Shown: in pieces, positions 10,131 to 61,080 of the stretch
How positions within the stretch are numbered: position 1 is the first letter of the stretch
Layout of the letters: each line of letters starts with the position of its first letter
Source of the DNA: Naegleria gruberi
Taxonomy: Eukaryota
Strand: one strand, 5' to 3'
Assembly (NCBI GenBank): GCA_000004985.1
Contig: GG738845.1
Length of the DNA: 64,000 bases
Made by a program: the position numbers and the translations under genes
The notes under the pieces: generated by a model
The model's input: the letters and a program-made list of their open reading frames with translations, nothing else
What the model was told of the DNA's origin: nothing
The model's database searches: none

Positions 10131-10222
10131 TTTTTTTGTATGTTTTTATGATGTTGTTCAATCCTATGGCGGGAAATGTGTAGATGTTGGCGGGAAAATT
10201 ATGAGTGATATGTTTCTTTGTC

Positions 10223-12209
10223 TTAGTAATTTGTTCCTGTACACAAAGAGCATCCAAGAATACATTCCTCCCCGTTATCAGCATGATTTCCACCTGTTGG
10301 GCATTTACCAACACCAAGACATTTTGGAAGTTGATTTTTTGGGGTTTTTGTTAGAGCCTGAGTTTCTACTTGTTTTCTGTGGCATTTGTCACAAAAATGG
10401 GTTGTTCCCCAACAAAACCAAGTGGCCATATTACTGTTCTCAATGTTATTGATAGCATCTTTGATTTTAAACTTACCAACAGAATTTACACTTGTACGAA
10501 ATAAACTCAGCTCCATGCACTTCACAGACACCTTCTTGTCTAACCTTTTTAGCACAACAGGAACCACAAACAAGCTCCTCTGGATTGAAATTATCATCCT
10601 CATTCTGTTCTCCACATTGAATCTTTCCTCCGTAGTATGGACTTTTGCATTCATGGCACATGTAGAATGAAAAAGAGTTCATTGCATACTCTAAAGGTTT
10701 GTTATAATATTTTCCAGATGGAGACGTAATTTCCTCAATCTTTAAAAGACCCTCTTGCTCTAGTTTGACCAGTGATTTTTTTTCTATTATCGATTTGAGT
10801 GCTCTTACTTGGGTTGTTTCATCTTTTAGAGCTGGATGATGGATAGAAGTGTTGCATAGAGGACATTTCTCAAATGAAAAGCTCACTCTTGCCCCATGCC
10901 ATTTCTTTTCCAGCTTTTTCTTTATGCATTCAAAATGGAAAATATGTCCACAATTAAGCTGTATGCAAGGAGCATGATTCAAGGAGCTAATCCAACAAAT
11001 ATTGCAATAGTCATCACCACTTTGGCAAGTATCTCTTGAAGAGCAATTCAAACAGGGAAGGTGCTCAAATTCATCCTTAATTCCACAACAATGATGACCA
11101 CATGTATGCTTGTGATTGCAAGAATTCAGAGCTTTTTGCTTGCATTCTTCATTCTCACAAATATCACCATTGCAATTAATATCAATAGATGAATCACAAT
11201 ATCTACACCTTTTCGAAGAAAGGTATTCTAAAAATGTGTCACAAGTAAATCCTTCGTGATATGGAGATTTTAAGCATTTTGAGCAAAATTCTAAGGAGCA
11301 AACTCTACATCTAAATCTGAACTCTTCTTTGTGAATGTCATCTTCTTTGATTGGCCTTTTTTGAGATTCAAGTTCAGAAATGATTTCCTCTCTCTTCATG
11401 TGGATTCTTTCAACAATATTTTTACATGAAGAGTTTGGACAAGTAATAAAAGTGTTTCCGGTGTCAGCATTCTTCAATGCTCTCCTCAATTCCATATCTA
11501 ATAACTTTGAGTATTCTTTTTCAGAAAGAACCGAGGAAATTAATTGAGACGGTACTGTCTGACAGCATCCATTTGCTGGGCAAAGGATCGACAATTCATC
11601 AAAGTCCAAAGAGTCATCAGTTTCGTCCCCAAAGGAAAGAAAATACTTTCTCAAACATTCTTCACAAAATACATGAACACAACTCTCCATAAAGAATGAC
11701 ATGTCTATGGTCAAGTATTTACCACAACAATCACATTTCATTTTCTCCTCGTTTTCCAATTGTTTTTTATGCTCCTTAAGCTCTACCAAGTATATTTGCC
11801 TAGCCATCTGTTCATCCTTTCTTTGCTGATCCGGTGATGTAGTGCTAAATAAAAAAGCATCATAATAGGAAGTAAAATCTTTAGGCGAGTAAAGTTTTGG
11901 TTTTTTCTTACTTTGAGGAGTTAAGCAAGAAACCCCAGTAGACCTCAACATGTTCCTTAAATTAAGGCATTCATCAATATGTTGTTCAATATTTCTTGAA
12001 GAAAATTCTTTTTCACACACAGGGCAAGTAACCAGGGAATTTCTGGGTGTATTTAATTCCTCTCTGTTAGGAGTTGAGGGAGGAGAAAAAGAATAAAAAC
12101 ACTCTCCATCTGTGAAGCAGGTTGTGCTGGAGGTGTCATCCACATTATCATTAAGCATTTTTTTTGAAACCTTGTCCCTTAAAGGACATATTTGGCGGGC
12201 AATAATCAT
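10223..12209 (-). CDS. Multi-zinc-finger E3 ubiquitin ligase with a UBZ4-type finger plus RING/IBR-like fingers. Two exons, approximately complement(join(10223..10433,10477..12209))
   Basis: UBZ4-like CPVCEKEFSSRNIEQHIDECL. RING-like CDCCGKYL..CVHVFCEECLRKYF and CNICW..CGHIFHFECIKKKL..CPLCN, with several further Cys/His clusters. Track ORF 10473..12257 starts at TTG, and candidate ATGs are at 12209 and 12158. It ends at a TAA that is part of a minus-strand GTAAGT donor. Splicing to the AACAG acceptor (a ~43-nt intron) joins in frame to ORF 10223..10654 (..[18 protein letters not shown]..), which continues the Cys-rich domain. Confidence 0.65.
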
Positions 12210-12245: not shown

Positions 12246-13190
12246 ATGAACAAACAAGCAGACAAAGAATTACAGCCAAATAACCTACCTGATGATTCGG
12301 AGAGTAAAAGAGAGCCAAAAACCCGAGACACCATGATTGCGGGTGCACTGGCTAGATGTGGTGCTGCCACAATAATGTATCCAATAGATGTTTGTAAAAC
12401 TAGAATGCAATTTCAGAGACGTTCCGCTCACTTTCATACAGTATACAGAAACAGTTTCCATTGTTTGTCTAGTATGATGAAAACAGAAAGATTTGGAATA
12501 TATAGAGGATTATCACTGCGATTGTTTTATATTGGTCCAGGTGCTGCAATTACATTTACAGCTTATGAAGGATATAAAAAACATGCAGAAAAAGCCAAAC
12601 AAAAAGGGGAAAGTATTCTTACATCTGGAGCCTTATATTCTCTAATTATTGGTGGATTGGGAAGAGCAGTCGAGTCAGGAATTAAAACTCCTTTCAACAT
12701 TATAAAACAACAATTGCAAGTTGAGGGACAATTGACAACCCAGTTCAACCGAGGATTGGTAAAATCAGTGAAACATATTATGGAAACAAAAGGAGTTGGT
12801 GGATTATTTGTTGGATATTCTGTTACACTTTGTAGAGATTTACCCTTCTCATTTCTATATTTTGCAAGTTATGAATTTATCAAAAACAAATCAGAAAATT
12901 ATTCCATTCCACTTCTCAAAGACTATGCTGCTGTTAGAGGTGCTATTGCTGGAAGTTTTGCATCTGTTTGTACTTTACCTTTTGATGTGATCAAAACAAG
13001 GATACAAACACAACACAAAATTTCATCCGATGCACACTATTCAGGTTATAAGGATGCTGTCTCTAAAATATTTAAACAAGAGGGTTTTGCTGGATTTTTT
13101 AGAGGTATAACTCCACGATTAATTTATACAATCCCGTCCACTAGTATTACATTCCATCTCTATGAAGTATTAAAAAATTATTTAAAATAA
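12246..13190 (+). CDS. Mitochondrial carrier family (SLC25) protein
   Basis: 314 aa with three carrier repeats carrying Px[DE]xx[KR]xR-type signatures (PIDVCKTRMQ, PFNIIKQQLQ, PFDVIKTRIQ). ATG at 12246 sits in an AAAAAAATG context. Confidence 0.85.
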   Translation: MNKQADKELQPNNLPDDSESKREPKTRDTMIAGALARCGAATIMYPIDVCKTRMQFQRRSAHFHTVYRNSFHCLSSMMKTERFGIYRGLSLRLFYIGPGAAITFTAYEGYKKHAEKAKQKGESILTSGALYSLIIGGLGRAVESGIKTPFNIIKQQLQVEGQLTTQFNRGLVKSVKHIMETKGVGGLFVGYSVTLCRDLPFSFLYFASYEFIKNKSENYSIPLLKDYAAVRGAIAGSFASVCTLPFDVIKTRIQTQHKISSDAHYSGYKDAVSKIFKQEGFAGFFRGITPRLIYTIPSTSITFHLYEVLKNYLK

Positions 13191-15767: not shown

Positions 15768-17675
15768 TTATTTATTATTCTTTTTTGCTAAGGCAAGTTG
15801 ACGACAATATTCAAAACGTTCCTTACAATCTTTTGCTGACTTTCCTGGAACAATCTCAGAAATTTTTTCCCATTTAGAATCACCCTTGAGTTCCTTGAAT
15901 TGTCTAATACCAGTCTCTAGAGCTTTTTGTTGAAGTGCTGTCCAATTTTCAGTTCCACTCGAGCTAGAATCAACATTATTTGTTTGATTATTGATATTAT
16001 ATTGTTCGTCCATTTTTTTTTCCTCTTCTCTTTTTTTGGCTGTTTGATTCTTTGAATTTGTCTTTTGAAAATCTCCAAAATAGTCTTTTTCTTCTCTCTT
16101 TGGTAGAACGTCTTGAATAGATGTCATTTTACGAATTTCTCCTGTTTTTTGTTGAACTTCTTCTGGTGTCTTGGTTTTAACATACTCAGCTACTTTGATC
16201 CATCTTTGTGGAGTGCCACCAGGAAACATTGATATAGCCTTTGCTAAAAGACTCAATTCCTCATGATTCCACTCTGAAGTCTTTTGTTTTTCATTCTTTT
16301 TTTGTTCTTGGGTTTGTTGTTTCTTGTCTTCTTCTTTTTTCTTGACAATTTCTCTCACCTTTGTCTCTAAATCATAAAAAGCAGTCACAAACTTTGAATC
16401 ATCTTTTGTTTTTTGAGCCTCTACAAATGTTGGTTCTAACTTTTGTACCATTTTTACCAAATTCTCAATGGGTAAATGGGTCAATACAAATTCAACATCC
16501 TCTGGTCTAATATTCGTCATTTTGTCTTGTTTTTTAACTGGCTTCATCAAAAGTAACAAATAAGGATCACACATTTCTCTCATTCTCTTGATAGTTTGAG
16601 TTTTTTCCTGTTGTTTTCTTTCATTTTCCTCTTTTTCTTTTTGCTTTTTCTCTCTTTCTTCTTGCTCAACTTTTTTAATTCTTTCCTCTTCTTCCTTTCG
16701 TTCCTTTTCTTCTCTTAATATTCTTTCCAACTCACGCTTGTTCTTTTCTTCCTCCTTTCTCTTACGCTCTTGTTCTATTTCTTCATTCTTTTTCTTTACT
16801 CTAGGATCATTTTTACGAGCAAGTTCAACCAAATCTGTGAGCTTTTTCTTCTCTTCCTTTTTTCTTTTTTGATTAATTTTGTCGTTTTGACGTTTCATCC
16901 AACGACGTTCCTCTCTAGAATCAGCAGTTGATTCGTCATATTCACTTTCGCCACTGAAGTCACGCCAACTTTTAAAGGTTGACCAAAAAACATAAAATCT
17001 TTCCAATTCCTCAAAAGAAGTTTTCATATCACCTAACTTTGGAACATTTGGGAAAGAACGTGACCATTTAGACCATCTCTCAAAAACTGGAGCAAAGGTG
17101 GAGAAGAATCTCTTTTGTTCCTCTTCTTCAGTAAGAGGAGTTGAAGGAGCAGAGTAAGTTGGAATTGAATCATCAAAAGGTTCACTTGAATCATAACATA
17201 ATTTCTTTCTCTCATCTAATAACGTTTCATATGCACGAGTTAAAGCTTTAAACATGGTATCATCTCCACTAGTTGTTTCACCATTTTCTCCTGTTTTTTT
17301 GAAATGGTCAGGGTGATACTCTTTTACTTTCTTCTTGTAGGCTTTACGAATATCATCAGGAGTTGAAAGCCAACGTTTTTCCAATCCTAATATTTCATAA
17401 TAGTCATAATCTTCCTCTTCTTTTTCGTATCCTTCACTATTCTTTATCATTCTCTTCTTTTTCATTAATTTTTGAACATCTACACCAGCATTAATTTCGT
17501 CATCATCAGAATCATCAGAGTCAGCCGATGAGGATTGTGATGTTTTTTTACTATATTTGTTATTAACATCATGAGTTTGTTGAAATAACATTTGGAAGAA
17601 TCCACGGCCAATATATTGTTCAACTTTACTCAGATCCAACTCATTATTGACAGCGTCTTTTGTTGATGCACTCAT
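15768..17675 (-). CDS. DNAJC2: DnaJ homolog subfamily C member 2 (zuotin/MPP11-like ribosome-associated J protein)
   Basis: J domain with HPD (DYYEILGLEKR...KKKVKEYHPDHFKK), a central charged region, and two C-terminal SANT/Myb-like domains (WNHEELSLLAKAISMFPGGTPQRW.. and WTALQQKALETGIRQF..KWEKISEIVPGKSAKDCKERF). The true ATG is at 17675 (MSASTKD). The track start at 17831 lies upstream of it. Confidence 0.85.
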   Translation of the reverse strand: MSASTKDAVNNELDLSKVEQYIGRGFFQMLFQQTHDVNNKYSKKTSQSSSADSDDSDDDEINAGVDVQKLMKKKRMIKNSEGYEKEEEDYDYYEILGLEKRWLSTPDDIRKAYKKKVKEYHPDHFKKTGENGETTSGDDTMFKALTRAYETLLDERKKLCYDSSEPFDDSIPTYSAPSTPLTEEEEQKRFFSTFAPVFERWSKWSRSFPNVPKLGDMKTSFEELERFYVFWSTFKSWRDFSGESEYDESTADSREERRWMKRQNDKINQKRKKEEKKKLTDLVELARKNDPRVKKKNEEIEQERKRKEEEKNKRELERILREEKERKEEEERIKKVEQEEREKKQKEKEENERKQQEKTQTIKRMREMCDPYLLLLMKPVKKQDKMTNIRPEDVEFVLTHLPIENLVKMVQKLEPTFVEAQKTKDDSKFVTAFYDLETKVREIVKKKEEDKKQQTQEQKKNEKQKTSEWNHEELSLLAKAISMFPGGTPQRWIKVAEYVKTKTPEEVQQKTGEIRKMTSIQDVLPKREEKDYFGDFQKTNSKNQTAKKREEEKKMDEQYNINNQTNNVDSSSSGTENWTALQQKALETGIRQFKELKGDSKWEKISEIVPGKSAKDCKERFEYCRQLALAKKNNK

Positions 17676-17698: not shown

Positions 17699-19033
17699 AT
17701 GCCCAGCTTCTTCGCCGACATCTATGCAAGAAGGCAGGAAGGATCTCTTGCTTCCACAACCACACACAACAAGGAAAACAATATTTTACTAATAGATGAT
17801 GAAGAACAATATGATGATACTTCTGTTGCAAATCCCATCAATGATAATAATTTATTCACTACAAACAAGTACCATCAGGTTCAGAGAGCTCCTCAAATTT
17901 TAAATAACAGGAAGTGGTATACATGGATATTTCCAATAATTGCTTTTATTTTAATTATTTGGGTTGTTTTAGGTTATGTATTTGGATTTCTTTTACCTAT
18001 TATTATTTCTTCTTCGGAAACAGTATTCGTCAGAGTACTTCATAGTTTCTACTTTATTTTATTTTCGTTTATGTCTGTGTGTATTATTTATCCATTCATC
18101 AAGTGTATATTTACAAATCCTGGATTTGTATTTAAAGATGATAAAGTATGGCGACTTTCAAAGGATCAAATCAAACATTACAAAAAACGAGGACCTGGAT
18201 TTATTGCTGATTTGGAAAAGGAAATCAAACAAATTATGAGCTACAGAAATGAAATCAGAGATTTAATAAATGGATCACAGGAGGTTGAAGTGGACGAAAA
18301 TAGTCAGGAAATCCATCAAGAGGATTTATCATTCAATGATTCTTTAACGTCAGAATTGAACTCAAGAGGTCAAGGTATGTTATTATTTCTATCATAACTT
18401 CAACCTTAATCGATCATTTAGTTAGAATTTGCGAGAAATGTTGGATTAGAAAACCAGATCGTAGGTGAGTTGTTTAGTAGTACTTAATTATTGATTGTCA
18501 ATAGTCATCATTGCAGACAATTGAATTGTTGTGTTTTGAGAATGGACCACTTCTGTCCATGGTTCAATAACTGTATAGGATATTACAACCACAAATATTT
18601 CTTTACATTTCTTTCATGGATAGCCATTACAGGGTTTTTCATTGTTGCAACAATGTCTAAAGTCATGTTCAAGACACTTCAACAACATGGATCCCAAAGT
18701 ACATTTAATTTCTTTACTTTCAATAATCTATGGGTCTATATTTTGAGCTTTTGCTTTGGTTTCTCAATGTTTTTCTTTGCTGGCTATCATTTTAAACTTA
18801 TAATTTGCAATACCACTACCATTGAATCTTTAGATAAGGAGAGAAGATTATATGAACAACATCACTGTGAGGCTCCCTATGATATTGGTGTATTGAGAAA
18901 TATTAAATCAATACTGGGAGATAATCCAATTTTATGGCTTTCCCCTTTCCACATTGATTATGAGGGAGATGGATGCCATTATCCATTGAAATCATCCAAC
19001 AACTATGAGGTTGTTGCTTCAGTTGATAATTAA
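17699..19033 (+). CDS. zDHHC-type palmitoyltransferase. Three exons, approximately join(17699..18374,18422..18464,18505..19033)
   Basis: Exon 1 carries TM helices and a DPG-like 'NPG' motif. A 43-nt micro-exon encodes [11 protein letters not shown]. Exon 3 continues [33 protein letters not shown], the CRD with a DHFC variant of DHHC, followed by more TM helices. Introns are GTATGT..TTTAG (~47 nt) and GTGAGT..CAATAG (~40 nt). First ATG is at 17699, and the track's earlier M is not ATG. Confidence 0.8.
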
Positions 19034-40173: not shown

Positions 40174-40259
40174 TATGATCAATTTTTTTTAAATTTATTG
40201 TACGTTTTAATGGCGGGAAATGTTTTTTCAAAATTACAATTTTGTTCTACGGAAATAAC

Positions 40260-42667: not shown

Positions 42668-43144
42668 CCAGTCTATGGTCCACTCTATTCCTTATTAACA
42701 TATTAGTTCTCTACAGTTTTCTAACCACCTAAATATGAACCCTATTATTATTAGATTTATTAAAAAAAAATGTCACAACCTAATTACATGGTCAACCCAC
42801 ACATGTGATGGAATTGGTAGAATCAAATACTGATATACTAATTGTCTGCACTAAACCAATAAACAAACTTTCTCTTACTATAATGTCATTCTTATCAACG
42901 AAATTAAAATAAGTTTCCGAAGCTGAAAAGAATTGTTTAAAAGTAAACATGTGGTTAAACATATTGTTCATGTGATGTATCAAGAAAACTATCAACAAAT
43001 TAAATGAAATTATGTTTGTGAGCGGAGTAGTCAAACAACAACAATCCAATTTTTTAAATTATTTTTTTAATTACAAAAGCGTCACTGTAGAGACTAAAAA
43101 TGGTGTTCCCGCCACAGGCAGACCTCCAGTGGTTTGTCAGCACT

Positions 43145-45303: not shown

Positions 45304-47581
45304 ATGTTGAATAACCATCTTCACGATCAAACCACTGGAACATCATCAAATCGTCTTCAATCGGAAGATAAAAAAAGGAAAAAGAAAGAAAAAGAAGCAA
45401 AAAAGAAGAAGCAAAAATATGAGGAAATTTTAAACGATCTAGATAATGAAGTAGCAAAAAAAGCCCAGGAAAAGCTTGTGAGTGATATTTTCAGTCAAAA
45501 GAAGGACGTTCAATTTGACCATTCAAATTTGGAATTAAAACCTGACCATAAACTCCGTCCAGTTTGGGTTTGTTCAGGTACTGATGGCAAATTTCATATT
45601 TTCATGGAGACCTTTTCACCAATTTATCAACAGGCTTATGATTTTCTTGTTGCTGTTGCTGAACCTGTTTCACGTCCTGAAAATCTACACGAATATGTAT
45701 TAACTGAATATTCTCTCTATGCAGCTGTCAGTATTGGTATGAACACCGAACAAATTATTCAAGTTTTGGAGAAGCTAAGTAAGGTTAAATTATCCGAAGC
45801 TCTCATCAATTTTATTAGAGATGTAACAAGAAAATATGGTAATGTAAAATTAGTTCTGCAGAAAAATAGATTTTTCGTAGAGTCACCCCATTTGACTATC
45901 ATGGAAAAGTTATATGAAGATAAAATCATTAGTGCAGCTGCTATTGTTCCTGATCCAAATGAGTTTCCAAATGTTGATAGATCCAAAAGATTTATTATTA
46001 GAACACGATCAAAACAAAATGAATTGGAAAAGTTTCAAAAGCAAGCTCTTGCTAATACATCAACTGTAAATAAGGGATCTAAAATTCAAACTGAAATGAT
46101 AAGAGCTGTAAATCAAATTGGAGATGATGAAGATGATGATGCTGATGATGATTTTGATATTTCTTCAGCAGTTGAAACGTTTTATTTATTCGAAATTAAT
46201 CCAACAGAGGTTGAACATGTGAAAAAGCAATGCATTCAGATNNNNNNNNNNNNNNNNNNNNNNNNNNNNNNNNNNNNNNNNNNNNNNNNNNAGTCAGTGT
46301 ATTGAATGGAAGAATCAATTTAAATTATGGAGTACTATTGATGAGAATCGTGTAGTAGTATTTACTTCTCAGGAGAAGGATGCTTTACCAAAAGATGATG
46401 ATCCCTTAATCATCATTACAACATACACTATGATTACCCATACCAGAAAGAGAAGTGGTGAGGCAAAGGAGGTTATGGATTACATTCAAAGTAGAGAATG
46501 GGGATTATTAATTTTAGATGAGGTCCACGTCGTTCCCGCCAACATGTTTAGACATGTTGCGAGTGTAAAGTCTCATTGTAAATTAGGATTGACAGCCACT
46601 CTTTTACGTGAAGATAACAAGACAGACGATTTATATTTTTTAATTGGTCCAAAATTATATGAAGCTAATTGGCTTGATTTACAACAAAAAGGCCATCTTG
46701 CTAATGTGCAATGTGTGGAAGTTTGGTGTCCCATGACTGCCGAGTTTTTTGCTGAATACTTAACAGCCAATGCTAAGAAAAAGACTTTACTTTATGTTAT
46801 GAATCCAAATAAGTTTAGAGCTTGTGAATTTCTGATTAGATACCATGAAAAGCAAGGAGACAAAATCATTGTTTTTAGTGACAATGTTTTTGCTCTCCAA
46901 GAATATGCTGAAAAGTTGGGGGTACCCTACATTTTTGGTAATACCAAACAACAAGAACGTGTTTATTATTTGAACCAGTTCAGAAATACTAACCATTATA
47001 ACACTATTTTCATCAGTAAGGTTGGTGATACAGCAATTGACATTCCTGAGGCAACTGTGATTATTCAAATATCATCTCATTTTGGTAGTAGAAGACAGGA
47101 GGCTCAACGTTTGGGTCGTATCCTTCGTCCAAAAGGTGGTGGACTTAAAAATCAACAGGCCTACTTTTACACACTAGTTTCTCAAGATACACAAGAAATG
47201 TTCTTCTCCACAAAGAGACAACAATTTTTAATTAATCAAGGCTACAGCTTTAGAGTCTTGCCTGATATTCAAAAGTATTACAGGCAAGGTGCTAATGAAA
47301 TGGGTCTAACTCTCAAACACATGAATACCAAGAAGGAAGAATTAGACATGTTGGCTATTGTAAAAAAGGCTGAAGATGCAAGAGGCCAAGAAGAAAAGAT
47401 CAACGTTGATGATGAAGTTGAAAAATCATCTAGTAGTCTTGCTTCAATCTCTGGTGGAAATGAAATTTATTACCATTCCTATGAAGCTTCTACAACAACT
47501 TCCAGAAGAAGAGGTAAAGCTACCAAAGTTCCTTCTACTGTGCATCCACTTTTCAAAACCAGAACCCAACACAAGGATTAA
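45304..47581 (+). CDS. ERCC3: TFIIH helicase subunit XPB/ERCC3/SSL2 (interrupted by an assembly gap)
   Basis: N-terminal XPB block (..[60 protein letters not shown]..). The helicase motifs are ..[22 protein letters not shown].., ..[10 protein letters not shown].. and a helicase-C region (..[41 protein letters not shown]). The 50-N gap 46242..46291 splits the coding sequence. Confidence 0.9.
46242..46291. other. Assembly gap (50 N) inside the XPB gene
   Basis: A run of 50 'n' characters. The reading frame across the gap cannot be verified. Confidence 0.99.
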
Positions 47582-47676: not shown

Positions 47677-48690
47677 ATGTACCTTACTAAAACCGTTCTT
47701 TTGTGCGGTTTGTTGTTGGTAGTGGTTTTGCTCTCTTGTGAAGTTGCCACCAAAAAACCAAACTTTCCCCTTTTATTTAATGAATTTGGAAGTAACTTGA
47801 AAAATTATACTTGCCTCACAGATAGGTTGGCCCAAGCACCAAATTCCAGAAATATTATTAAGTTTTTAGAAAAATACGTAGAAGAAGAAAATAATCTGTA
47901 TGAAGCATATGAAAAATCCCTAAATAACGTACTATTGAACAAAAAGATTGTTCAAGAAACAAGTAAAAGAATACCATCTATGGAGGAAGAAATCAAACTC
48001 TTTGGTGATGTGAATAACTTTGCCAAATTATATGAATTGAAAAATAAGAATAATCTTGAAAATCAAATCGATTCAGTAATTAAAACAACGACGGAAGCTT
48101 TGGAGGATGCTAAGAAATCTTTAAATCAACGAAAGGATACTGGTGATTCATTAATGAAAATTTATTTAGCTGCTTTAGTGGACTATGAATTTAAGAGGGA
48201 AGAAAGAGAAAAAATTTTCAACTCAACACTCAAAACTTTTGGAAAAATTAAGGAAACAAATTCTACAATTCTCTGCAATATTATTAATACTGAAATTAAG
48301 CAAAACCTCTTGGATTGTTCTTTGGTTCGTCCATTCTCACATCGTTCCAACCAAATCCCACAACAAATTCCTCAAAAAACACAAATCAAATCTATTTCAC
48401 ATATTATTAAATCAGGACCAAATGGAGGATCAAAATCATTAAACGTGGACATGACACAATGGAAGAAAGGACAAACTTTCAAAGTTGCTGTAAAGACATC
48501 CAAAGTTCATATTGGGTTAGTTTTCTCAATACTCAACCATGCAAGCAAGCCAATCTGGAGGTACGAAATTCCTCAAGAAGGAATAATTACTTCTCCAACT
48601 TTGACCTACACTGAAGGTGGATACATCACATACACTATTTCTTTGAGCTCTAATTCAGAGGATTTACAAGTAGTTCTTACTGCAGAATAA
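47677..48690 (+). CDS. Predicted secreted protein of unknown function
   Basis: 337 aa. The N-terminal signal-peptide-like MYLTKTVLLCGLLLVVVLLSCEVA is followed by a hydrophilic body with no recognisable domain. Confidence 0.45.
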   Translation: MYLTKTVLLCGLLLVVVLLSCEVATKKPNFPLLFNEFGSNLKNYTCLTDRLAQAPNSRNIIKFLEKYVEEENNLYEAYEKSLNNVLLNKKIVQETSKRIPSMEEEIKLFGDVNNFAKLYELKNKNNLENQIDSVIKTTTEALEDAKKSLNQRKDTGDSLMKIYLAALVDYEFKREEREKIFNSTLKTFGKIKETNSTILCNIINTEIKQNLLDCSLVRPFSHRSNQIPQQIPQKTQIKSISHIIKSGPNGGSKSLNVDMTQWKKGQTFKVAVKTSKVHIGLVFSILNHASKPIWRYEIPQEGIITSPTLTYTEGGYITYTISLSSNSEDLQVVLTAE

Positions 48691-48701
48691 TATTTGTGGT
48701 T

Positions 48702-51056
48702 TTATTGCTTTGATTTTGGAGTCAAATCATAGTCAACCAAATCTATAAAGGATTTGATGTATTCATCTACATTTTCTTCATGTTTTCTTTCTTTGATCAA
48801 TCTTGCTGCTCCAGCAACCTTACTCTTGTAAACAATAATATCTGATGGAGATAGTTTAAATCCAGTTTCTTCGAACATTTTCTTTAGGAATTCGCGAGCT
48901 TTTTCCACATATCCTTCATCTACTAATCTGAAAATCATATGTTTGTATGCTTGATAAGTTGGTTGGACACCATTTTGTTTCATTTCATCAAATAAGAGTA
49001 GTGCACTTTCTGTCCTCTTCAATCTACAGTACATCCTTACTAAAAGCGTATATGCTATTCCTGTTGGTTGTAGATTATGTTCTGTGTACTTATTTTTGCA
49101 CAATTCCAAGGCTTTTTCCACTCTGAGAGCATTGGTAAATACTCCCAATAACGAATTGAGTGTATATTCGCTGATTGGAAGATTAGTTTCTTTCATTTTT
49201 TCATAAACAGCAAGAGCATCTGAAATGTTTTGGTTTTGTTCTTTTGTGAGGTTCTTGTTGCCTTTCTGTTGTTGAGCAATACTAAAACAGCTAAGGACTG
49301 AATTGTAAGTGTGCTCAGTTGGCTTAATACCTATCTCTTTCATTTTCAAAAGAACCTTTTTCATTCTGGCAACACTTCCATCATCTGCACATGCATTGAT
49401 GAGAGAATTAATAGTATAAATATCTGGTTTGTAACCGTACAGCTCCATTTGTTCAGCTAACTCAAACACTCTGTGACGAAGTTCTTTTCTTTTGGAATAT
49501 GCTTTGATAAGAGTATTGAATGTTACTTCTGTAGGTTCTATCATCATTTGTTGCTCCAATCTCCTGAAAAGCATCATGGCTCTTTCTGCTTGGCCTCTCA
49601 TAGCACATGCATTTATCATTGTTGTAACAGTTACTTCATCATGAGGAATACCATAAACCATACCCATAGCCATGTAATGATTCCAAGCTCTCTCTAAATC
49701 TCCTTTCTTTATACAACCTTGAATAAGGTCAGTATGAATAACAGTATCTGTTGGTAAGTTGTGAGAACGCATTAATTCTACCATTTGGAAAGCTTCATCT
49801 ACCTTTCCAGCCCTTACCATTGCATGAACTACTATACTGTAAGATACAATTGTAGGACTAATGTGGTATTCACTTTGCATTTCTCTCAAGTAACCATAGG
49901 CCTTCTTGTAATCTCCTCTAACAGCACAAGCTGTCATTACAGCATTGTATGTGTATTCAGAGGGTAATAATAGATCATTTTCATCAATTTCTGTTTGTCC
50001 ACTTAAAATTGCAGCCTTTCTCTTCTCCAATATATTTGTCAATATTTGGGGAGAAGGTCCTAATGATTTAATTTTCTCCAATGTTTGCTCGGCTAATTCC
50101 AATTTTCCTTGCATAGCTTGGCATCGTATAAGATAGTCAAAATTCTTAATTGTTAAAGGTTTGTTGTCGAAATATTTGTGAATATCTGTTTCCTCAGAGA
50201 GCATTTTCATTTTGTCTAATTGAACTAGAGTACTAGTTGGTGTGAGTAGTTTAGTAGTTAACTGTGACCAGTTTGGGTCATCTCGTAAATAAATATCCAT
50301 ATGACCCTCGGTAGTTTCTTCAAATCTTAATCTTTCTCTAATATTTTCTGGAATAATTTTACCTTGTCTCCAAAGTTTTACAAGTCTTGGAGATTTGAAA
50401 GGTACTAAACTTTCTGGAGACTCTGGATTGAATTTGGTAGTATCTAACTGCCTCTCAGCGATTGATTTTTCTGAAGACTTGATTGACTCATTTTGATAAA
50501 ACCCTTTTCTATTTGAAAGGGATCTTGGAGGGGCTTCAATCATTTGATTTTCAGATTCTGCTTCAATGATAGGTGACTGGATTTTTTCTCTAATTATCTG
50601 TTCATCTCTTTCCTTACTCTTTTGAATCTTGTTTCTTCTTTGTTGTTCTTTTCTATTGGAAGCCTTTTTTTCAGATTCCATAGAACTGAATTCTTCCATA
50701 GCATTTTCCAAGGCCTCTCGTTGATGTTGTGATAATTTTAATGCATTTGGATCTACTCCTAGATGCTTTTTTGTTAATTGTTCATCATTTAACAAATTTC
50801 TATTCGGAACAACTTTTTGTGAAAGAGTTACTAGGTTATCTTTTTTTCTAGCATAGACTGTTTTTGCTGGTTTTACCGGATTGTTATGATTAGTCTTATT
50901 GGAAGAATATAATCCGTTGCTCAATTTTAAATTAATATTATAAAATTGTAATCCCGAGTAGTCATCGGTCTTTAGAATATTCTCTTTTTGCAAACTTTTC
51001 AAATTTATTTTTGAAATTCTTTTTTGTACTGTTTTGCCTGTGATGAGTTTTTTCAT
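48702..51056 (-). CDS. Pentatricopeptide-repeat (PPR) protein, probably mitochondrial RNA-binding
   Basis: 784 aa. The C-terminal two thirds consist of tandem ~35-aa helical repeats with the PPR pattern (YNAVMTACAVRGDYKKAYGYLREMQSEYHISPTIVSYSIVVHAMVRAGKVDEAFQMVELM..TVIHTDLIQGCIKKGDLERAWNHY..). The N-terminal region is basic and S-rich. Confidence 0.75.
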   Translation of the reverse strand: MKKLITGKTVQKRISKINLKSLQKENILKTDDYSGLQFYNINLKLSNGLYSSNKTNHNNPVKPAKTVYARKKDNLVTLSQKVVPNRNLLNDEQLTKKHLGVDPNALKLSQHQREALENAMEEFSSMESEKKASNRKEQQRRNKIQKSKERDEQIIREKIQSPIIEAESENQMIEAPPRSLSNRKGFYQNESIKSSEKSIAERQLDTTKFNPESPESLVPFKSPRLVKLWRQGKIIPENIRERLRFEETTEGHMDIYLRDDPNWSQLTTKLLTPTSTLVQLDKMKMLSEETDIHKYFDNKPLTIKNFDYLIRCQAMQGKLELAEQTLEKIKSLGPSPQILTNILEKRKAAILSGQTEIDENDLLLPSEYTYNAVMTACAVRGDYKKAYGYLREMQSEYHISPTIVSYSIVVHAMVRAGKVDEAFQMVELMRSHNLPTDTVIHTDLIQGCIKKGDLERAWNHYMAMGMVYGIPHDEVTVTTMINACAMRGQAERAMMLFRRLEQQMMIEPTEVTFNTLIKAYSKRKELRHRVFELAEQMELYGYKPDIYTINSLINACADDGSVARMKKVLLKMKEIGIKPTEHTYNSVLSCFSIAQQQKGNKNLTKEQNQNISDALAVYEKMKETNLPISEYTLNSLLGVFTNALRVEKALELCKNKYTEHNLQPTGIAYTLLVRMYCRLKRTESALLLFDEMKQNGVQPTYQAYKHMIFRLVDEGYVEKAREFLKKMFEETGFKLSPSDIIVYKSKVAGAARLIKERKHEENVDEYIKSFIDLVDYDLTPKSKQ

Positions 51057-51075
51057 TTTTTTTTAATTTAAAAAA

Positions 51076-52464
51076 ATGAAATCGTTAAAGAAAAGCTCGC
51101 TGCTACGATTAGCTTCAACATCGGCTTTCTTTTCAGCTTCAACAAGTCATCATATTTTTCAATCAAAATTCTATTCCAGTTCTCAATACGATGTCAAATC
51201 TTCTGGAATTGCAAAGGAAAAGGTGGAGAAGAAGTTGAGTAAAATTGAAAGACTCTTTTCCAAGAATACATCATCCAAGAAGAAGAATTATCAAACAGTA
51301 GAGGCACAAACCAAAGCTCCGAGCCCTCTTGCAACTCCACTTCCTCCATCAAGCGGTACATCAACAAAATCAAAACAAAAACTTCCAGAAAATGAAATGA
51401 TAAATAGTTTAATTAGTGGTTCTGGTGTAAATTTAACACCAGAAGAAATTGAAAAAGCAAAGGACACCCTAAACCCTTCCAAAAAGCAATCCTCCATAAC
51501 ATCTCCAATTTTAGGAAACAGATCGTTTTCAGAAGATGAAGTAGATGATGCCTGGATGGAACAAATGAAAGGCCCTTTTTATTATCGAACAATAATTAGA
51601 TTAATTGAGAAGCAGAGATATCTTTCCGAACAAGATAGAAATTCTCTAATAAGCTATGTCAAAAAGGAATTCAGGGATAGAAGTAAAAATGTAGAAGCTC
51701 AATATCAAATAGCAGATAACTTTGTTCACATAATGAGGGCAAAAGATTTAAAAAGTGCTCAAATTACTACTGATGCTTTGGATAATAATCAATTGGATGA
51801 ATCAAAAGAATTGACCTATTGGAATGAATACTACAAACAACATGGATATGTAGAGGAATGGTATTGTGATTGGGATGTAATTAAAAGCTATCTTCCAGAA
51901 GCAATTCTAAAGTTAAAAACCAAACCAAACAAGGAGTCTTTACAAATTTTAGATATTGGTTGCGGCTTGTCAACAGTTTCATTACATTTAACAGGTCATA
52001 TGGAAAAGCAGCTTTGCTCAGTTACATCAATTGACATTAGTAATATGTTGATAGCCCTGATGTCTGATTCGTATGCTGATATTGCTGATATAATTTCTTT
52101 CAAACAAATGGATGTTAGAGATTTGTCTTTTGAGGACAATACTTTTGATTTTATTTTTGATAAGGCAACTTTTGATAGCATACTGTCTTTTGATTCTTCA
52201 ACCATTTCAGATCTCACCTCCTATGAATCTGAAGTTTATAGGACCCTAAAACCTGGTGGTGTTTTAATGCTTTGTAGTGTAAATCCTTTTGAGGGCATTG
52301 AAGGGTTCTTCTCTGGACAGACCTGGTCAAGCATAAAATTAGCAGGAAGTAAAAACCTATTGGAAGACCACACTACCAATAATAGAAGTTTACAACTAGC
52401 AGATGACAGTGTGCTTGGAAATGCATTCCTACATTTTTATCATATCAAAAAGCCAACCGAATAA
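51076..52464 (+). CDS. Class I SAM-dependent methyltransferase (METTL12/13-ECE2-like lysine MTase family) with a presequence-like N-terminus
   Basis: C-terminal motif I ILDIGCGLSTVSL, the 'DKATFDS' (DKGTLDA-like) motif and LKPGGVLML. The N-terminus MKSLKKSSLLRLASTSAFFSASTSHHIFQSKFYSS is Ser/Arg/hydrophobic-rich like a mitochondrial targeting peptide. Confidence 0.65.
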   Translation: MKSLKKSSLLRLASTSAFFSASTSHHIFQSKFYSSSQYDVKSSGIAKEKVEKKLSKIERLFSKNTSSKKKNYQTVEAQTKAPSPLATPLPPSSGTSTKSKQKLPENEMINSLISGSGVNLTPEEIEKAKDTLNPSKKQSSITSPILGNRSFSEDEVDDAWMEQMKGPFYYRTIIRLIEKQRYLSEQDRNSLISYVKKEFRDRSKNVEAQYQIADNFVHIMRAKDLKSAQITTDALDNNQLDESKELTYWNEYYKQHGYVEEWYCDWDVIKSYLPEAILKLKTKPNKESLQILDIGCGLSTVSLHLTGHMEKQLCSVTSIDISNMLIALMSDSYADIADIISFKQMDVRDLSFEDNTFDFIFDKATFDSILSFDSSTISDLTSYESEVYRTLKPGGVLMLCSVNPFEGIEGFFSGQTWSSIKLAGSKNLLEDHTTNNRSLQLADDSVLGNAFLHFYHIKKPTE

Positions 52465-52520
52465 AAGGAAAAGTTTACTGCAGCTTAATTCGAAAAAAGG
52501 GAATTATTCAATAAGAGTCA

Positions 52521-55397
52521 TTATTGTTTGAGATCAGCATAATCTGGTACCTTAATCTCAAAAGATTTGGAAACTCCACACCCAAAAGTTTGCTCATATT
52601 CTTGGAGGGCATTGGGGAAGCTATTTGAAACATAACATCTCTGGCATAAATCCGTGCTTGTTGGTTCATGATGGAATCTTACCCCAATAATTGTTGTTTT
52701 GCAGCTGTCACATAAATACTCAAACACTATCAAGTTACTTTTGTCTAAGGTGGAATCTTTGTTAATGCAAAAATCACAATAAAACTTGAATTTTTCAACT
52801 TTGGATTGAAAAACAATTTGTGTAGAAATAGATCTTTTACACGTGTAACAAACTCCTACTTGAAGATCTTGATTTCTGTTATGAATAATTTTCAATTTTG
52901 TTCTCTTGGGGTTCTTGTTCACTATAATTAATTTTCTCTTTTTCTGGGAATATTCACCTAGTTGGGCAATTTGTTTCTTATCTTCAAGATTTGTTTCTAT
53001 TGGAAAGTCAGCTATATCTAATAGGTGCTTAGCTCGCTTAGATTCAAGAATTTGTTTGATTGGTTTAGGTTGAAAATCATTTACACTACTTAATTTGTTA
53101 TCTATTTTAGCACCATTCACATCACCAACAGAGAAAGGCAAAATCTCCTTGATATCATCAAGTCTTGATAATACATTTGTAGAATATTCCAAACAGTCTA
53201 CATCTCTACTTCGTAAGCAATTCTTGCAGTTACAGGCATCATTACATTTTGGGCATACCCAATTACAAACTCTTTTACAACCACAAAGAGTGAGCGCATA
53301 TCTATCCCATAAACATTGATTGCAGTAATTCAAATGACATTTAGAGCATTCAGAAAAAAGATAGTCCGACTTGTGAGTTTGACATTGATGACAAAATACC
53401 TCTGCATATGAATCTCTTTTCAACATTTGTAAATTGTTCCATGCTATTGTAGATATTGACACAGTGTTATTGGCATCTCTACTACAAAGAATCAACTTCT
53501 CTACATCAGACATATTGTTTACAGTAGGCCTATTTGAAAGGAGAGAAAATCTAAGGAATTCTTCTTTGGCTGTTTTAAAGTTGGCCTTTAGTTCTTCAAA
53601 GGTGATATGTTCCATAAGTTGAAGAGAGTCCTTATAAAGATATCCTCTTCCTTCCGCCACACAATCCATACATAAATCATAACCATCTTCAAATTCTTCA
53701 GCATGGAAGCATCTGTTAAAGATATCCCCTTTACAATGGTTACAATATCTCCTGTGCATTGAGCTGCGAGGTTCGGGAAGCTTTTTGGCAATGGTATCTT
53801 TGAAAGAGGGGGAATCTATTGATTCTTCGAATAAAATGTCATCAAAAACTCGAAGTAAAATTAAAAAATCATTGAAAAATCGTTTAGGGTCCTTTTCTAA
53901 ACTAATATTTTCTGAATTAAAAGCTTGTGCCTTTTTTGTATAGCTAATCATTGAATAGTACGTCACAGCTTTGATTCTATAAACTTGAGATTTTCCAAAT
54001 CGTCTGTATTCATCTAGAATCTCATAAGAATATGGAAGTGCTAGACATGAAAGTGTATTCCATGCTACTTTGATGCTTTTACCTCCCATATTCAATACCT
54101 GATGAGGAGAGCTTGGGGGAAGAAGTATGAGATCACCCCATTTTTGTTCGTACAAGTACACTGTAAATGGTGCTTTTGCTAAAATATGTATTGGCAAAAA
54201 GCAATTGTCATCATCTAAGAATGCACCGTTTTGTTGCCAAAATTTTCTAATCAAATCCAAATCTTCATACTTTAGAATGCACCATATTGCATGAGTTCTT
54301 TCATTATCAGCGTAAACCATAATGTTATGACCAAGGGCTCCACACACATCTTTGTGAGCAGGAGTGAATGTTTCACTATTACCAACATATATCATTAAAT
54401 TAATTGATTGTACTTTTCTTTCTGTATTGGCCAACAAATCTCTTCCACCTTTGTATTTGAATCTTTCAGGAAATCTTGGATTTTTAAATAAATATTCATG
54501 CCATTCGTCAGGACATCTAATATCTTTTCCATATAAGATTCTACGATCTGGAGCACGGATATTCTTGTCACTTTGTACAAAGTCTATATATTCCTTAAGA
54601 GACATACTTTCATCATCAAATGTCATGTTGTCTCTAGGTGATGTTTCGTATGATCCACAAACATCACGCAAATAATTCAAATGAAACAATGACATTTGTT
54701 TTTTCAAATACTGATCAATAAATGATTTCTTATCTGTTTCTAAGATAGACAAGTCCCTTTCCATGGCACCTTCAGCAAGTGCATGAAGGGCATTTGTTAG
54801 TACAATTGGTTTTCCCAATTTGTATAAATATAAATCTATAATATCATCGGTTGCCTCACTAAAATCAATTGTTTCTACTTGCTCGAAATTACTACACCCC
54901 AACTCTAACCATTGTTGAACACTTTTTGCCTTGTCAATGGTTTCCGTAATAGTCTCATCAAAGTTAAAGTCTAGTTTGACTTTATCAACACCTTTTCCGC
55001 ACATTCCTACTGGCTGGTTGTTGTCTTTTGTTACTTTCCTGCTTCCTTTTTTAGGTCCTCTCTTTTTTGCTTCCGTTGGTGGTGCTAAAACTTCTTCCAA
55101 TTCCTTCCTAGTTTTAGATCTTGTTTTTTGGACAATTAATTCTTCAGCATCAAAATCCTCCAAATCATAATCATCCTTTTTTGTTTGTTTTGCTGTTTTT
55201 TGTGTAGAACCTCTTCTGTACGCAAAATATCTTTTGTAACAAGAGTCACAAGATATTCCCAACGTGATTTGTTCTCTTGGTACTGTAGGATTACTTTCTC
55301 GGTATAATTCAATATTTTCACTTTTCACTTTGCATTTTCTACCAAACAACGTTTCACTTTCTGCCTGTCCACAAACCGAGCAGCAAATAGAGGACAT
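52521..55397 (-). CDS. JmjC-domain histone demethylase-like protein (KDM3/JMJD1-type) with N- and C-terminal Cys-rich fingers including a ZZ-like finger
   Basis: JmjC core ..TPAHKDVCGALGHNIMVYADNERTHAIWCIL...LPPSSPHQVLNMGGKSIKVAWN. Upstream C2HC4-like clusters (CNHCKGD..CMDC; CHQCQTH..CSKCH..CNQC...CPKC). C-terminal ..CDSCKTTIIGVRFHHEPTSTDLCQRCY (ZZ-like). True ATG is at 55397 (MSSICCSVCGQ), and the track start at 55622 lies upstream of it. Confidence 0.8.
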   Translation of the reverse strand: MSSICCSVCGQAESETLFGRKCKVKSENIELYRESNPTVPREQITLGISCDSCYKRYFAYRRGSTQKTAKQTKKDDYDLEDFDAEELIVQKTRSKTRKELEEVLAPPTEAKKRGPKKGSRKVTKDNNQPVGMCGKGVDKVKLDFNFDETITETIDKAKSVQQWLELGCSNFEQVETIDFSEATDDIIDLYLYKLGKPIVLTNALHALAEGAMERDLSILETDKKSFIDQYLKKQMSLFHLNYLRDVCGSYETSPRDNMTFDDESMSLKEYIDFVQSDKNIRAPDRRILYGKDIRCPDEWHEYLFKNPRFPERFKYKGGRDLLANTERKVQSINLMIYVGNSETFTPAHKDVCGALGHNIMVYADNERTHAIWCILKYEDLDLIRKFWQQNGAFLDDDNCFLPIHILAKAPFTVYLYEQKWGDLILLPPSSPHQVLNMGGKSIKVAWNTLSCLALPYSYEILDEYRRFGKSQVYRIKAVTYYSMISYTKKAQAFNSENISLEKDPKRFFNDFLILLRVFDDILFEESIDSPSFKDTIAKKLPEPRSSMHRRYCNHCKGDIFNRCFHAEEFEDGYDLCMDCVAEGRGYLYKDSLQLMEHITFEELKANFKTAKEEFLRFSLLSNRPTVNNMSDVEKLILCSRDANNTVSISTIAWNNLQMLKRDSYAEVFCHQCQTHKSDYLFSECSKCHLNYCNQCLWDRYALTLCGCKRVCNWVCPKCNDACNCKNCLRSRDVDCLEYSTNVLSRLDDIKEILPFSVGDVNGAKIDNKLSSVNDFQPKPIKQILESKRAKHLLDIADFPIETNLEDKKQIAQLGEYSQKKRKLIIVNKNPKRTKLKIIHNRNQDLQVGVCYTCKRSISTQIVFQSKVEKFKFYCDFCINKDSTLDKSNLIVFEYLCDSCKTTIIGVRFHHEPTSTDLCQRCYVSNSFPNALQEYEQTFGCGVSKSFEIKVPDYADLKQ

Positions 55398-55464
55398 AAT
55401 GGTATTTTTTTTTGATGTCTTAAAGCATCTGCCGCCAATGAAAAGTAAAATTCTACAATAAAAA

Positions 55465-57498
55465 ATGCCATCATCACGATCAGAAACCCCAACGGCAGAA
55501 CTAGAACCGACTGCAGATAGTGGTACAACGTTGGGCAATAATGACCATTTGTCTAGTGAAGAAATAACAAATACTGAATCTAATACAACAAAAGAAAAAA
55601 CAGTAATACAAGAAGACATCATTACCCCAACGGTAATAAAGGACTCGGTCTCTCAAATTGAGGAATCAATTTCTTCTATTAAAGTAAAAATAAGGGATGG
55701 ATCTAAACAAGTAACAAATGTCAAAATAGAAAGTGATATGGAAGAGAATAAGAGAAGACTAAAATATGATGTAAAAAAGGAAGAAATTCAACAAAAATTA
55801 AAAAGTGAGGCAATTGTAAGCGCAAAAAAGAATGCAGCTATTCAAATGAAATGGCCTTCATTATTTGAAAAGAAAAATCATCAAGCTTTAATGGATAAAA
55901 TCAGAGAGCAAGAGGAAATGTGTAAAAAAGTAATTGAGAGCAAAAATTCTCTTGTGATGGAATTATCAAATGAATTGAAAGCTAGAGATGAGGAGTATGT
56001 GAGAGCGCTTAAAAAACAAGCAAAGGATCTTGATACATTAATTGAAAGAATGAACAACCAAGTTAGAGAACTAACAGATCAATATAACCTTCAGCTAGAA
56101 AGAATTGAAACCTCATTTGAGAAAGAGAGAAAAGAAATGTTAAAGAAAAATCTTTCAGAGTTTGAAGGTATTGCTGAAGAGAGAAGCAAAAAAGAAGAAA
56201 ATTATGCACTTGGAAGAATTCAAAAAGTGGATGAGTATGAACAACAACTGAAGGTATTGGCAGACCAAGAAATGGAAAAGTATGCTAAAAAAAAGAAAGA
56301 TCTGCTGGACGAAATACACGAATATGAACAAGAAATTGACTCAATAAGGGGTGAATATCAGTTGATGGCGCAAAAACTTGAATACTATTTTGAAGTTCTT
56401 GTTGATAGAGTAGAGGATAACAAAGTAGCAGTGAGAAACAACAAGGGGATAATGGCAAAGTTGCAAGACCAATTAAGTGGAATTAAAGCTAAATATATTA
56501 GAGATGATAATAAGTATAAGGCAGAAAATAATGAAACAAGTGAACAATTCAAACGAATGAGTATACAGTACAAAGATTTGTTGCAAAAATTTAAATACTT
56601 TGAAGAAGCTGATACTAAGAAATACAGGGATATTTGGAAAATGAACCAAGAAATTGTAGAGGATTTGGCTGAAAAGTTAAAAAAAGCAGATGAAATAATA
56701 ACAACTCAACAATTAGGATTAAGATGGATCCCCCCTGAAGAAGAAACCAAAACAAATCAAGAAAAGGAAACTTTATTCTTGCAAGACACCACAAATAATT
56801 CAAATTTAGAGGCTTCTTTTTCAGAGTCTATTAGTGAATCTTCAAAGGAAACCGTAACAAATCCCAACTCTCCAGCAACAGAAACTGTTAGAGTTATTTT
56901 TGAATCTCTCTGTGATAGTGCTGGATTTCTTGTAGAAGAAAAAGTTGAGAAAATATTGTCTAAGCTGACAATGGAAGAATCAAAAATACTGAAAGTGGAC
57001 AATATTTTGAGAGTATTGGGGATAGATACACCCGAGGAAGCAACAAAGATGGTAAATTTTTTCCAAAGAGCAATTGAAGAAGAAAAAGGAACAGACTCAG
57101 AGCTGACAGTAGACAATATCTCCACAGAAATGATAATTAAAATATTGAGAAAGTTTGTGGAAGAGCAAAACAAGAAAGCTATTATGGAACAAAACGAAAC
57201 AGGACGAAAGAAAAAGGTGTTGTCAACTGTAGAGAAAGCTAAAGATAGAAAAAGAAAAGAAGAAAGAGAGTTTTGGAAGATAACTGCTCAAGTCATCCCA
57301 GAATCAAGATATAAAGTGTGGGGAGCCTTAGAAAGGGGATTAGAAAAATATGGAGAATCTCTTGCCAAAAGAGAAAAACTCATTACAGAAACTGAAATGA
57401 TCAGAAAACAGAATAATGAGTTGAGAGATTTGCTGAATCAATACATGCAACAAAAGATCAATGAGGAGCTTTTGGTTCCAGCTCAAAAATTATTTTAA
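55465..57498 (+). CDS. DRC1: Dynein regulatory complex subunit 1 (DRC1/CCDC164)
   Basis: [56 protein letters not shown] matches DRC1 [66 protein letters not shown] matches [28 protein letters not shown] matches ILMLLCDESGFLIESKL. The C-terminal [17 protein letters not shown] matches LNSKINSELQVPPTQVL. Confidence 0.8.
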   Translation: [677 protein letters not shown]

Positions 57499-60989: not shown

Positions 60990-61080
60990 TTTTTAACGTG
61001 TATTTTTTGAAAGTTGTACAAAATTGGCGGGATATTACGAAAGCCCAAAAGGGCTGTAAGGAAAATTAACATTTAAAAAA

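Follow-up and report, generated by a model that had tools for sequence, protein, structure and literature searches.

Two genes for mitochondrial proteins lie head to head across 19 nucleotides in Naegleria gruberi, an arrangement most likely reached by gene compaction

Divergent genes whose products serve the same organelle are known from mammals, where the mitochondrial chaperonin genes HSPD1 and HSPE1 form a head-to-head pair with one promoter region. Classical bidirectional pairs have ~100-1000 bp between their transcription start sites (TSSs), carry defined factor sites, and keep their pairing across species. Here we describe a much tighter pair in a 64,000-nt stretch of nuclear DNA (contig GG738845.1, assembly GCA_000004985.1; the window hereafter) from Naegleria gruberi, whose genome is ~41 Mb in size. 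The window is gene-dense and has a G+C content of ~33%. In it, a gene for a pentatricopeptide repeat (PPR) protein of 784 residues (48702-51056, minus strand) and a gene for a methyltransferase of 462 residues (51076-52464, plus strand) diverge from start codons 19 nt apart, well inside the distance of <1 kb that conventionally defines a bidirectional pair on opposite strands with adjacent 5' ends. As in pairs of the HSPD1/HSPE1 type, the genes are divergent, both products are mitochondrial, and promoter DNA is necessarily held in common. Unlike classical bidirectional pairs, the two ATGs are only 19 bp apart and the pairing is absent from three related genomes. We consider it likely, at a rough probability of 70%, that ordinary compaction has pushed two independent nuclear genes to about the minimum workable spacing and that the joining of two mitochondrial genes is most likely a coincidence and no product of selection. 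On this reading, the pair is one more head-to-head example in a compact protist genome.

Two other systems are instructive for spacing on this scale. In Giardia lamblia, AT-rich initiators drive inherently bidirectional transcription (Teodorovic et al. 2007, PMC1885649). The N. gruberi junction resembles them in having a short, degenerate A/T-rich element by the ATG, and the very short leaders and two-way initiation of Giardia are what we propose here. Giardia, however, is a metamonad unrelated to Naegleria, and its upstream transcript is usually a sterile antisense RNA, whereas real genes extend both ways from the junction described here. In the microsporidian Encephalitozoon cuniculi, genes are compacted, 5' untranslated regions (UTRs) are <7 nt long, and transcripts overlap (Peyretaillade et al. 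2009, PMC2803860). There, as here, intergenic reduction forces promoter and terminator signals into neighboring genes, and upstream signals help to correct the annotation of start codons. Unlike E. cuniculi, N. gruberi lives freely as an amoeboflagellate. Compaction in its genome is regional, and an A-tract, rather than a CCC-like motif, stands next to its start codons.

The spacer between the start codons (TTTTTTTTAATTTAAAAAA, 51057-51075, 19 nt) consists of A and T throughout. Its layout is T8-AA-TTT-A6, and it is self-complementary at 14 of its 19 positions. The PPR start codon (51054-51056, minus strand, CAT on the plus strand) is abutted by the T8 run (51057-51064), which is an A8 tract on the minus strand and also occupies positions -19 to -12 of the methyltransferase gene. 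Likewise, the methyltransferase ATG (51076-51078, plus strand) is abutted by the A6 tract (51070-51075, plus strand), which is T6 at positions -19 to -14 of the PPR gene. A palindromic TTAA (51063-51066, both strands) gives each start codon a preceding TAA stop in its own frame, at 51064-51066 on the plus strand and at 51065-51063 on the minus strand, the latter three codons upstream of the PPR ATG; neither open reading frame (ORF) can therefore be extended upstream. Re-reading of 51054-51078, together with these in-frame TAA codons, confirmed the start coordinates and the 19-bp distance between the ATGs that had been given in the original prediction, a reading of the DNA made from its letters only, and the spacer that it had called T-rich/A-rich is indeed T8-AA-TTT-A6.

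Both proteins are found in mitochondria. Fractionation of N. gruberi cells yielded 946 putative mitochondrial proteins among 4198 detected, with 376 markers (Horvathova et al. 2021, PMC8134430). Both members of the pair are in the mitochondrial sheet 1 of Supplementary Data 2 of that study, the methyltransferase with 11 unique peptides, 34.2% coverage and a TargetP mitochondrial score of 83, and the PPR protein with 16 unique peptides, 32.6% coverage and a score of 10 (PMC8134430). The organellar location foreseen for both products is thus borne out by experiment. Neither of them is listed in a copper-response proteome data set. The first 38 residues of the methyltransferase are free of acidic side chains, and the 784-residue PPR ORF opens with a strongly basic stretch (in residues 1-30, nine K/R against one acidic residue), which makes its N-terminus the most basic among 34 window ORFs. 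The low TargetP score of the PPR protein was computed on a truncated public model, and it fits the longer ORF as the real N-terminus.

The PPR gene corresponds to NAEGRDRAFT_77692, and its public model (XP_002683405.1, 665 residues) begins at Met120 of the ORF (codon 50697-50699, minus strand; MEEFSS), omitting 784-665=119 residues. If this annotation were correct, the 357 nt upstream of the start at 50699 would be 5' UTR or promoter, the ATG-ATG distance would be 376 nt, and there would be no tight pair. Besides the public model itself, a poor alignment of the long ORF with orthologues over its initial ~55 residues speaks for the downstream start. Residues ~57-119, however, align with the N. 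lovaniensis (843 residues) and N. fowleri (874 residues) orthologues, whose own models have long N-termini, and tblastn alignments of the PPR protein extend to query residues 46 and 65. Because this conserved block precedes Met120 and the only in-frame ATG upstream of it is the one at 51056, we prefer that start, as did the original prediction. Moreover, no stop interrupts the 119 codons before Met120, although the DNA is 67% A+T, and the A8 tract before the ATG at 51056 fits the start context typical of the window. Finally, the 665-residue model is predicted to be non-mitochondrial, yet the protein is in the mitochondrial fraction, and the basic opening of the long ORF argues in the same direction. 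A start at Met120 is accordingly a poor prospect, and the public PPR model is probably truncated by 119 N-terminal residues that include the presequence, which would explain the non-mitochondrial score of a protein present in purified mitochondria. Other genes of the 2010 annotation have probably lost N-terminal codons in a comparable way, where a closely spaced head-to-head neighbor led gene callers to an ATG further downstream. On the other side of the junction, all four heterolobosean methyltransferase orthologues begin with MK, and an invariant block (EKKLSKIERLF, residues 49-61) stands well upstream of the next Met, residue 107. Both start codons are fixed by the TAA codons of the spacer and by the N-terminal conservation among orthologues.

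The composition of the spacer is that of ordinary start-codon context in this DNA. Among 34 window genes, A is found at each of positions -5 to -1 in 68-79% (23-27 of 34), against a background of 32%, and at -25 to -15 there is a modest excess of T (~46% vs 34%). Two such contexts placed back to back reproduce the T8...A6 pattern: 14 of the 19 spacer bases are the two pre-ATG A-tracts, these are joined by AATTT, and the TTAA overlaps the join. At a spacing of 19 nt, each A-tract also falls where the partner gene is usually T-rich. The spacer may thus be read as a generic A-rich pre-ATG tract, present once per strand, with no dedicated regulatory element. A bolder interpretation is that T8-AA-TTT-A6 is a complete, self-complementary minimal bidirectional initiator, in which each A-tract doubles as the T-tract of the partner, leaders are ≤19 nt, and the remaining promoter information resides in the presequence-coding regions. 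We put this forward tentatively and regard it as rather doubtful. If it were true, eukaryotic head-to-head genes could come no closer than ~19-23 nt, and dual coding and promoter use would occur preferentially in mitochondrial presequences.

The distance between the two genes is also in keeping with their surroundings. In an ORF-based map of the window, the nine divergent ATG-ATG gaps are 134, 36, 516, -10 (23 with a better-context ATG), 997, 628, 19, 91 and 766 nt, and about three of the nine junctions have a gap of ≤36 nt. For this part of the genome, a spacing of 19 nt is statistically unremarkable. One of the other two tight junctions lies between a zuotin/DnaJC2 gene (15768-17675, minus strand) and an unknown ORF (17699-18397, plus strand), which are 23 nt apart and show the same layout of CAT, T-run, A-run and ATG. 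The other, of 36 nt, separates a gene for an RBR-type E3 ligase (10473-12209, minus strand) from one for a mitochondrial carrier (12246-13190, plus strand). The partners in both of these pairs are functionally unrelated. Convergent genes are packed just as closely, with stop-stop gaps that include 0 (13190/13191), 4 (31580/31585), 11 (48690-48702) and 36 nt; the gap of 11 nt is that between the PPR stop codon and the stop of its downstream neighbor. As convergent stops are only 11, 0 and 4 nt apart, 3' UTRs and polyadenylation signals must lie inside the neighbor on the opposite strand, and with both divergent and convergent gaps so short, transcripts that overlap a neighbor must be common in the window.

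The pairing is not conserved in other heteroloboseans. The methyltransferase has orthologues of 58%, 56% and 39% identity in three other genomes, and the PPR protein has orthologues in N. fowleri (63%), N. lovaniensis (63%) and Willaertia magna (47%), in which its N-terminal extension is conserved. In all three genomes the two orthologues are on different contigs and have other neighbors: VFQX01000009 (methyltransferase) vs VFQX01000060 (PPR) in N. fowleri, PYSW02000001 vs PYSW02000044 in N. lovaniensis, and JBEGDK010000039 vs JBEGDK010000161 in W. magna. Searches of these genomes with tblastn found no PPR gene near any methyltransferase orthologue, nor the converse. None of 12 genes flanking the N. 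fowleri and W. magna orthologues occurs anywhere in the 64-kb window, and the 200-nt regions upstream of the orthologues contain no conserved motif, having merely trivial 7-8-mers in common. The N. lovaniensis methyltransferase gene instead stands head to head, at 28 nt, with a different and unannotated gene (starting MPKQPRV; L004 ~5061-5972, minus strand), and the N. fowleri orthologue of that gene (307 residues; L002:4962-5928) is 72 nt from the methyltransferase gene. Since the methyltransferase gene adjoins a different partner in these species, tight head-to-head packing appears to be a habit of these genomes that does not depend on the partner.

The original prediction had gone further and suggested co-regulation of the two genes from a shared minimal promoter. 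On this account, selection would have kept the A/T spacer as a minimal bidirectional promoter or initiator that coordinates two mitochondrial factors of gene expression or protein modification. The account draws on the similar intensity of both proteins in the mitochondrial proteome, on the near self-complementarity of the spacer (14/19), and on the bidirectionally firing AT-rich initiators documented in Giardia (PMC1885649). Against these, the two genes are unpaired in N. fowleri, N. lovaniensis and W. magna, the same architecture recurs between unrelated genes in the window, and the spacer has the composition of generic pre-ATG context. Chance must also be considered. N. gruberi reportedly has ~15,700 genes according to the 2010 genome paper. 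With a mitochondrial fraction of 946/~15,700=6%, ~14 divergent pairs in which both products are mitochondrial are expected genome-wide by chance. Selected co-regulation was therefore not borne out, and we judge it unlikely.

That compaction by itself brought these two genes together is the explanation we favor, and four points weigh against it. The chance of finding one both-mitochondrial junction among the ~9 in the window is only ~3%, a figure calculated post hoc. The label-free quantification intensities of the two proteins are similar in the densest mitochondrial fraction (log2 26.4 and 26.3; PMC8134430), which is compatible with co-expression. The divergent and convergent gaps were taken from a crude, intron-blind map in which some of the other starts are uncertain; among these is the E3 ligase start at 12209, which is without an A-tract and has the heptamer CCCGCCA just inside the ORF. 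Lastly, where transcription initiates and how far the two genes are co-expressed are matters of inference.

With the start codons so close, shared or overlapping promoter DNA is geometrically unavoidable. As 19 bp is too short for even one RNA polymerase II (Pol II) pre-initiation complex, each core promoter must reach into the first codons of the partner gene. Those codons encode a degenerate, Lys/Ser-rich mitochondrial presequence in each gene, which should tolerate embedded promoter signals. The mRNAs would then start either inside the spacer, with a 5' UTR of ≤19 nt, or a few tens of nucleotides inside the coding sequence of the partner, with a short antisense overlap. The A/T-only block is probably one nucleosome-poor initiation zone that fires both ways, and some co-variation in expression would be a plausible side effect of the common open region. 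Within 150 nt upstream of the methyltransferase start there is a single ATG (51043, position -33). It opens a 7-codon upstream ORF (MSFFIFF*, 51043-51066, plus strand) that is antisense to PPR codons 1-5 and closes at the spacer TAA; it matters only if the methyltransferase TSS is >33 nt upstream of the start codon. For the PPR start, the nearest upstream ATG is at -65, with none within 64 nt. Upstream ATGs are so sparse on both strands that leaders of up to ~30-60 nt would still be free of them.

The same geometry would permit an antisense switch based on transcriptional interference, in which the TSSs cross, each transcript begins inside the other gene, and expression alternates in an anticorrelated manner. 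Longer leaders of this kind are allowed by the single upstream ATG within 150 nt on the methyltransferase side and by the ATG-free 64 nt on the PPR side. The two proteins were nevertheless detected together, at similar levels, in the same trophozoite cultures, and we regard such a switch as very improbable. A search of the literature for Naegleria promoters, TSSs and bidirectional promoters gave nothing specific. Pairs with spacers of ~20 nt offer convenient natural test cases for the Pol II core promoter and leader length of Naegleria, and a defined core promoter would be useful for expression vectors in N. gruberi and N. fowleri.

A scan of 50000-52500 with Rfam matched no RNA family. The one further contig that carries the methyltransferase gene and this junction, a metagenome contig from ENA (L010, 1499 bp, from window position 51041), was considered as a possible transcript end and rejected, as it is identical genomic sequence. 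A scan for bacterial-type promoters and terminators returned only AT-rich chance matches, which are irrelevant to a eukaryote.

A candidate promoter element was found elsewhere in the window. The heptamer CCCGCCA occurs seven times, against 0.40 expected, and none of 100 shuffles reached seven copies. Five sites are on the minus strand (10167-10173, 10188-10194, 12193-12199, 40211-40217 and 61025-61031) and two are on the plus strand (43108-43114 and 46535-46541). Three copies are located 36-44 nt upstream of ATGs on the same strand (10130, 40173 and 60989), and the gene with its ATG at 10130 has a second copy at -58 to -64. The heptamer resembles an E2F-type site, TTTCCCGCC. It may be a position-constrained Naegleria promoter element, and its position suggests that promoters here lie within ~50 nt of the ATG and that leaders are short. 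CCCGCCA is absent near the PPR/methyltransferase pair.

N. gruberi XP_002683057.1 (NAEGRDRAFT_61183, 462 residues), on a contig of 1.56 Mb, is identical to the methyltransferase ORF. It consists of a presequence-like N-terminus, a low-complexity region and a seven-beta-strand domain at residues ~244-404. A class I S-adenosylmethionine-dependent methyltransferase domain was identified by Pfam at residues ~280-404, where the best match, Methyltransf_11 (E=3e-14, 53.7 bits; gathering cut-off (GA) 21.2), upholds the identity first proposed for this gene; Methyltransf_25 and Methyltransf_31 also score above GA. Among solved structures, human eEF1A-KMT4 (2pxx) is the closest relative, at E=9e-12 for residues 244-398. 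The eEF1A-KMT4-like group of 7BS lysine methyltransferases comprises EEF1AKMT4, EEF1AKMT2, METTL12 and METTL13, of which METTL12 is mitochondrial, and its Post II motif is [D/E]-K-G-T-X-D (Jakobsson et al. 2017, PMC5737405). N. fowleri and N. lovaniensis have DKGTFD at this place, and N. gruberi and W. magna have DKATFD, with a G to A replacement. Given this closest relative and the presence of the family-diagnostic Post II motif in the orthologous group, the protein is probably, as judged from its sequence, an enzyme that methylates protein lysines in mitochondria and is comparable in function to METTL12. Like METTL12, it is mitochondrial and has an N-terminal targeting sequence. Unlike its eEF1A-KMT4-like relatives, it has an N-terminal extension of ~240 residues, seen only in Naegleria and Willaertia, which includes a possible LYR-like domain.

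This candidate domain occupies residues ~160-225 (window 51550-51750). LYR-motif proteins fold as a three-helix bundle, with L/Y-Y-R/K in helix 1 and a conserved Phe further on. In three orthologues, Complex1_LYR_2 scores 20.4, 22.2 and 20.7 bits (E-values of 2e-4 to 9e-4), just under its cut-off (GA 22.3). An AlphaFold (AF2) model shows the region as a three-helix bundle at a modest mean confidence (pLDDT 67.6), and the alignment of orthologues reveals FYYR/FYYK and an invariant F47 in the domain. The top match in a fold search was 9hcd_v, a 69-residue chain from a mitoribosome assembly intermediate with the MALSU1-L0R8F8-mtACP module, at a non-significant E=0.21. A profile search of PDB sequences returned no LYR protein. 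It is possible that a LYR-like three-helix domain precedes the methyltransferase domain in Naegleria and Willaertia only. We take the enzyme to be a heterolobosean-specific mitochondrial member of the eEF1A-KMT4/METTL12-like group, and the possible LYR-like domain suggests a link to the mitochondrial acyl-carrier-protein network.

The minus-strand ORF encodes a P-type PPR protein, and the repeats noted originally were recovered by Pfam with PPR_2 (E=5e-54, 180.6 bits; GA 30) and PPR (4e-44, 146.1 bits; GA 25), followed by PPR_3 (141.4 bits), PPR_1 (121.9 bits) and PPR_long (1e-31). Pfam recovered neither a DYW nor an E editing domain. Outside Heterolobosea, the top matches are plant PPR proteins. 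Tandem PPR repeats, which are motifs of 35 residues, and a mitochondrial location are features held in common with the P-type mitochondrial PPR proteins of plants and protists; unlike these, the N. gruberi protein has a non-PPR N-terminal region of ~300 residues that is conserved only in Heterolobosea. In N. lovaniensis, the PPR orthologue has a tRNA-Ser(TGA) gene (L008:5807-5889) 112 nt upstream and, ~6 kb upstream, a gene with OrfB_IS605 / Cas12f-like TNB domains (TnpB/Fanzor-like; L008:1-199).

Two further loci in the window were observed in passing. A 548-residue ORF (6947-8593, plus strand) has no Pfam match and a presequence-like N-terminus (6 K/R and no acidic residue before position 52); it is 134 nt head to head with the ORF at 4779-6812 and may encode another mitochondrial protein. 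The first ATG of a JmjC/zf-4CXXC_R1 ORF (52521-55622, minus strand) overlaps the ORF at 55465-57498 (plus strand) by ~160 nt. The JmjC protein probably begins at a Met further downstream; if so, the locus is one more compact divergent junction in need of re-annotation.

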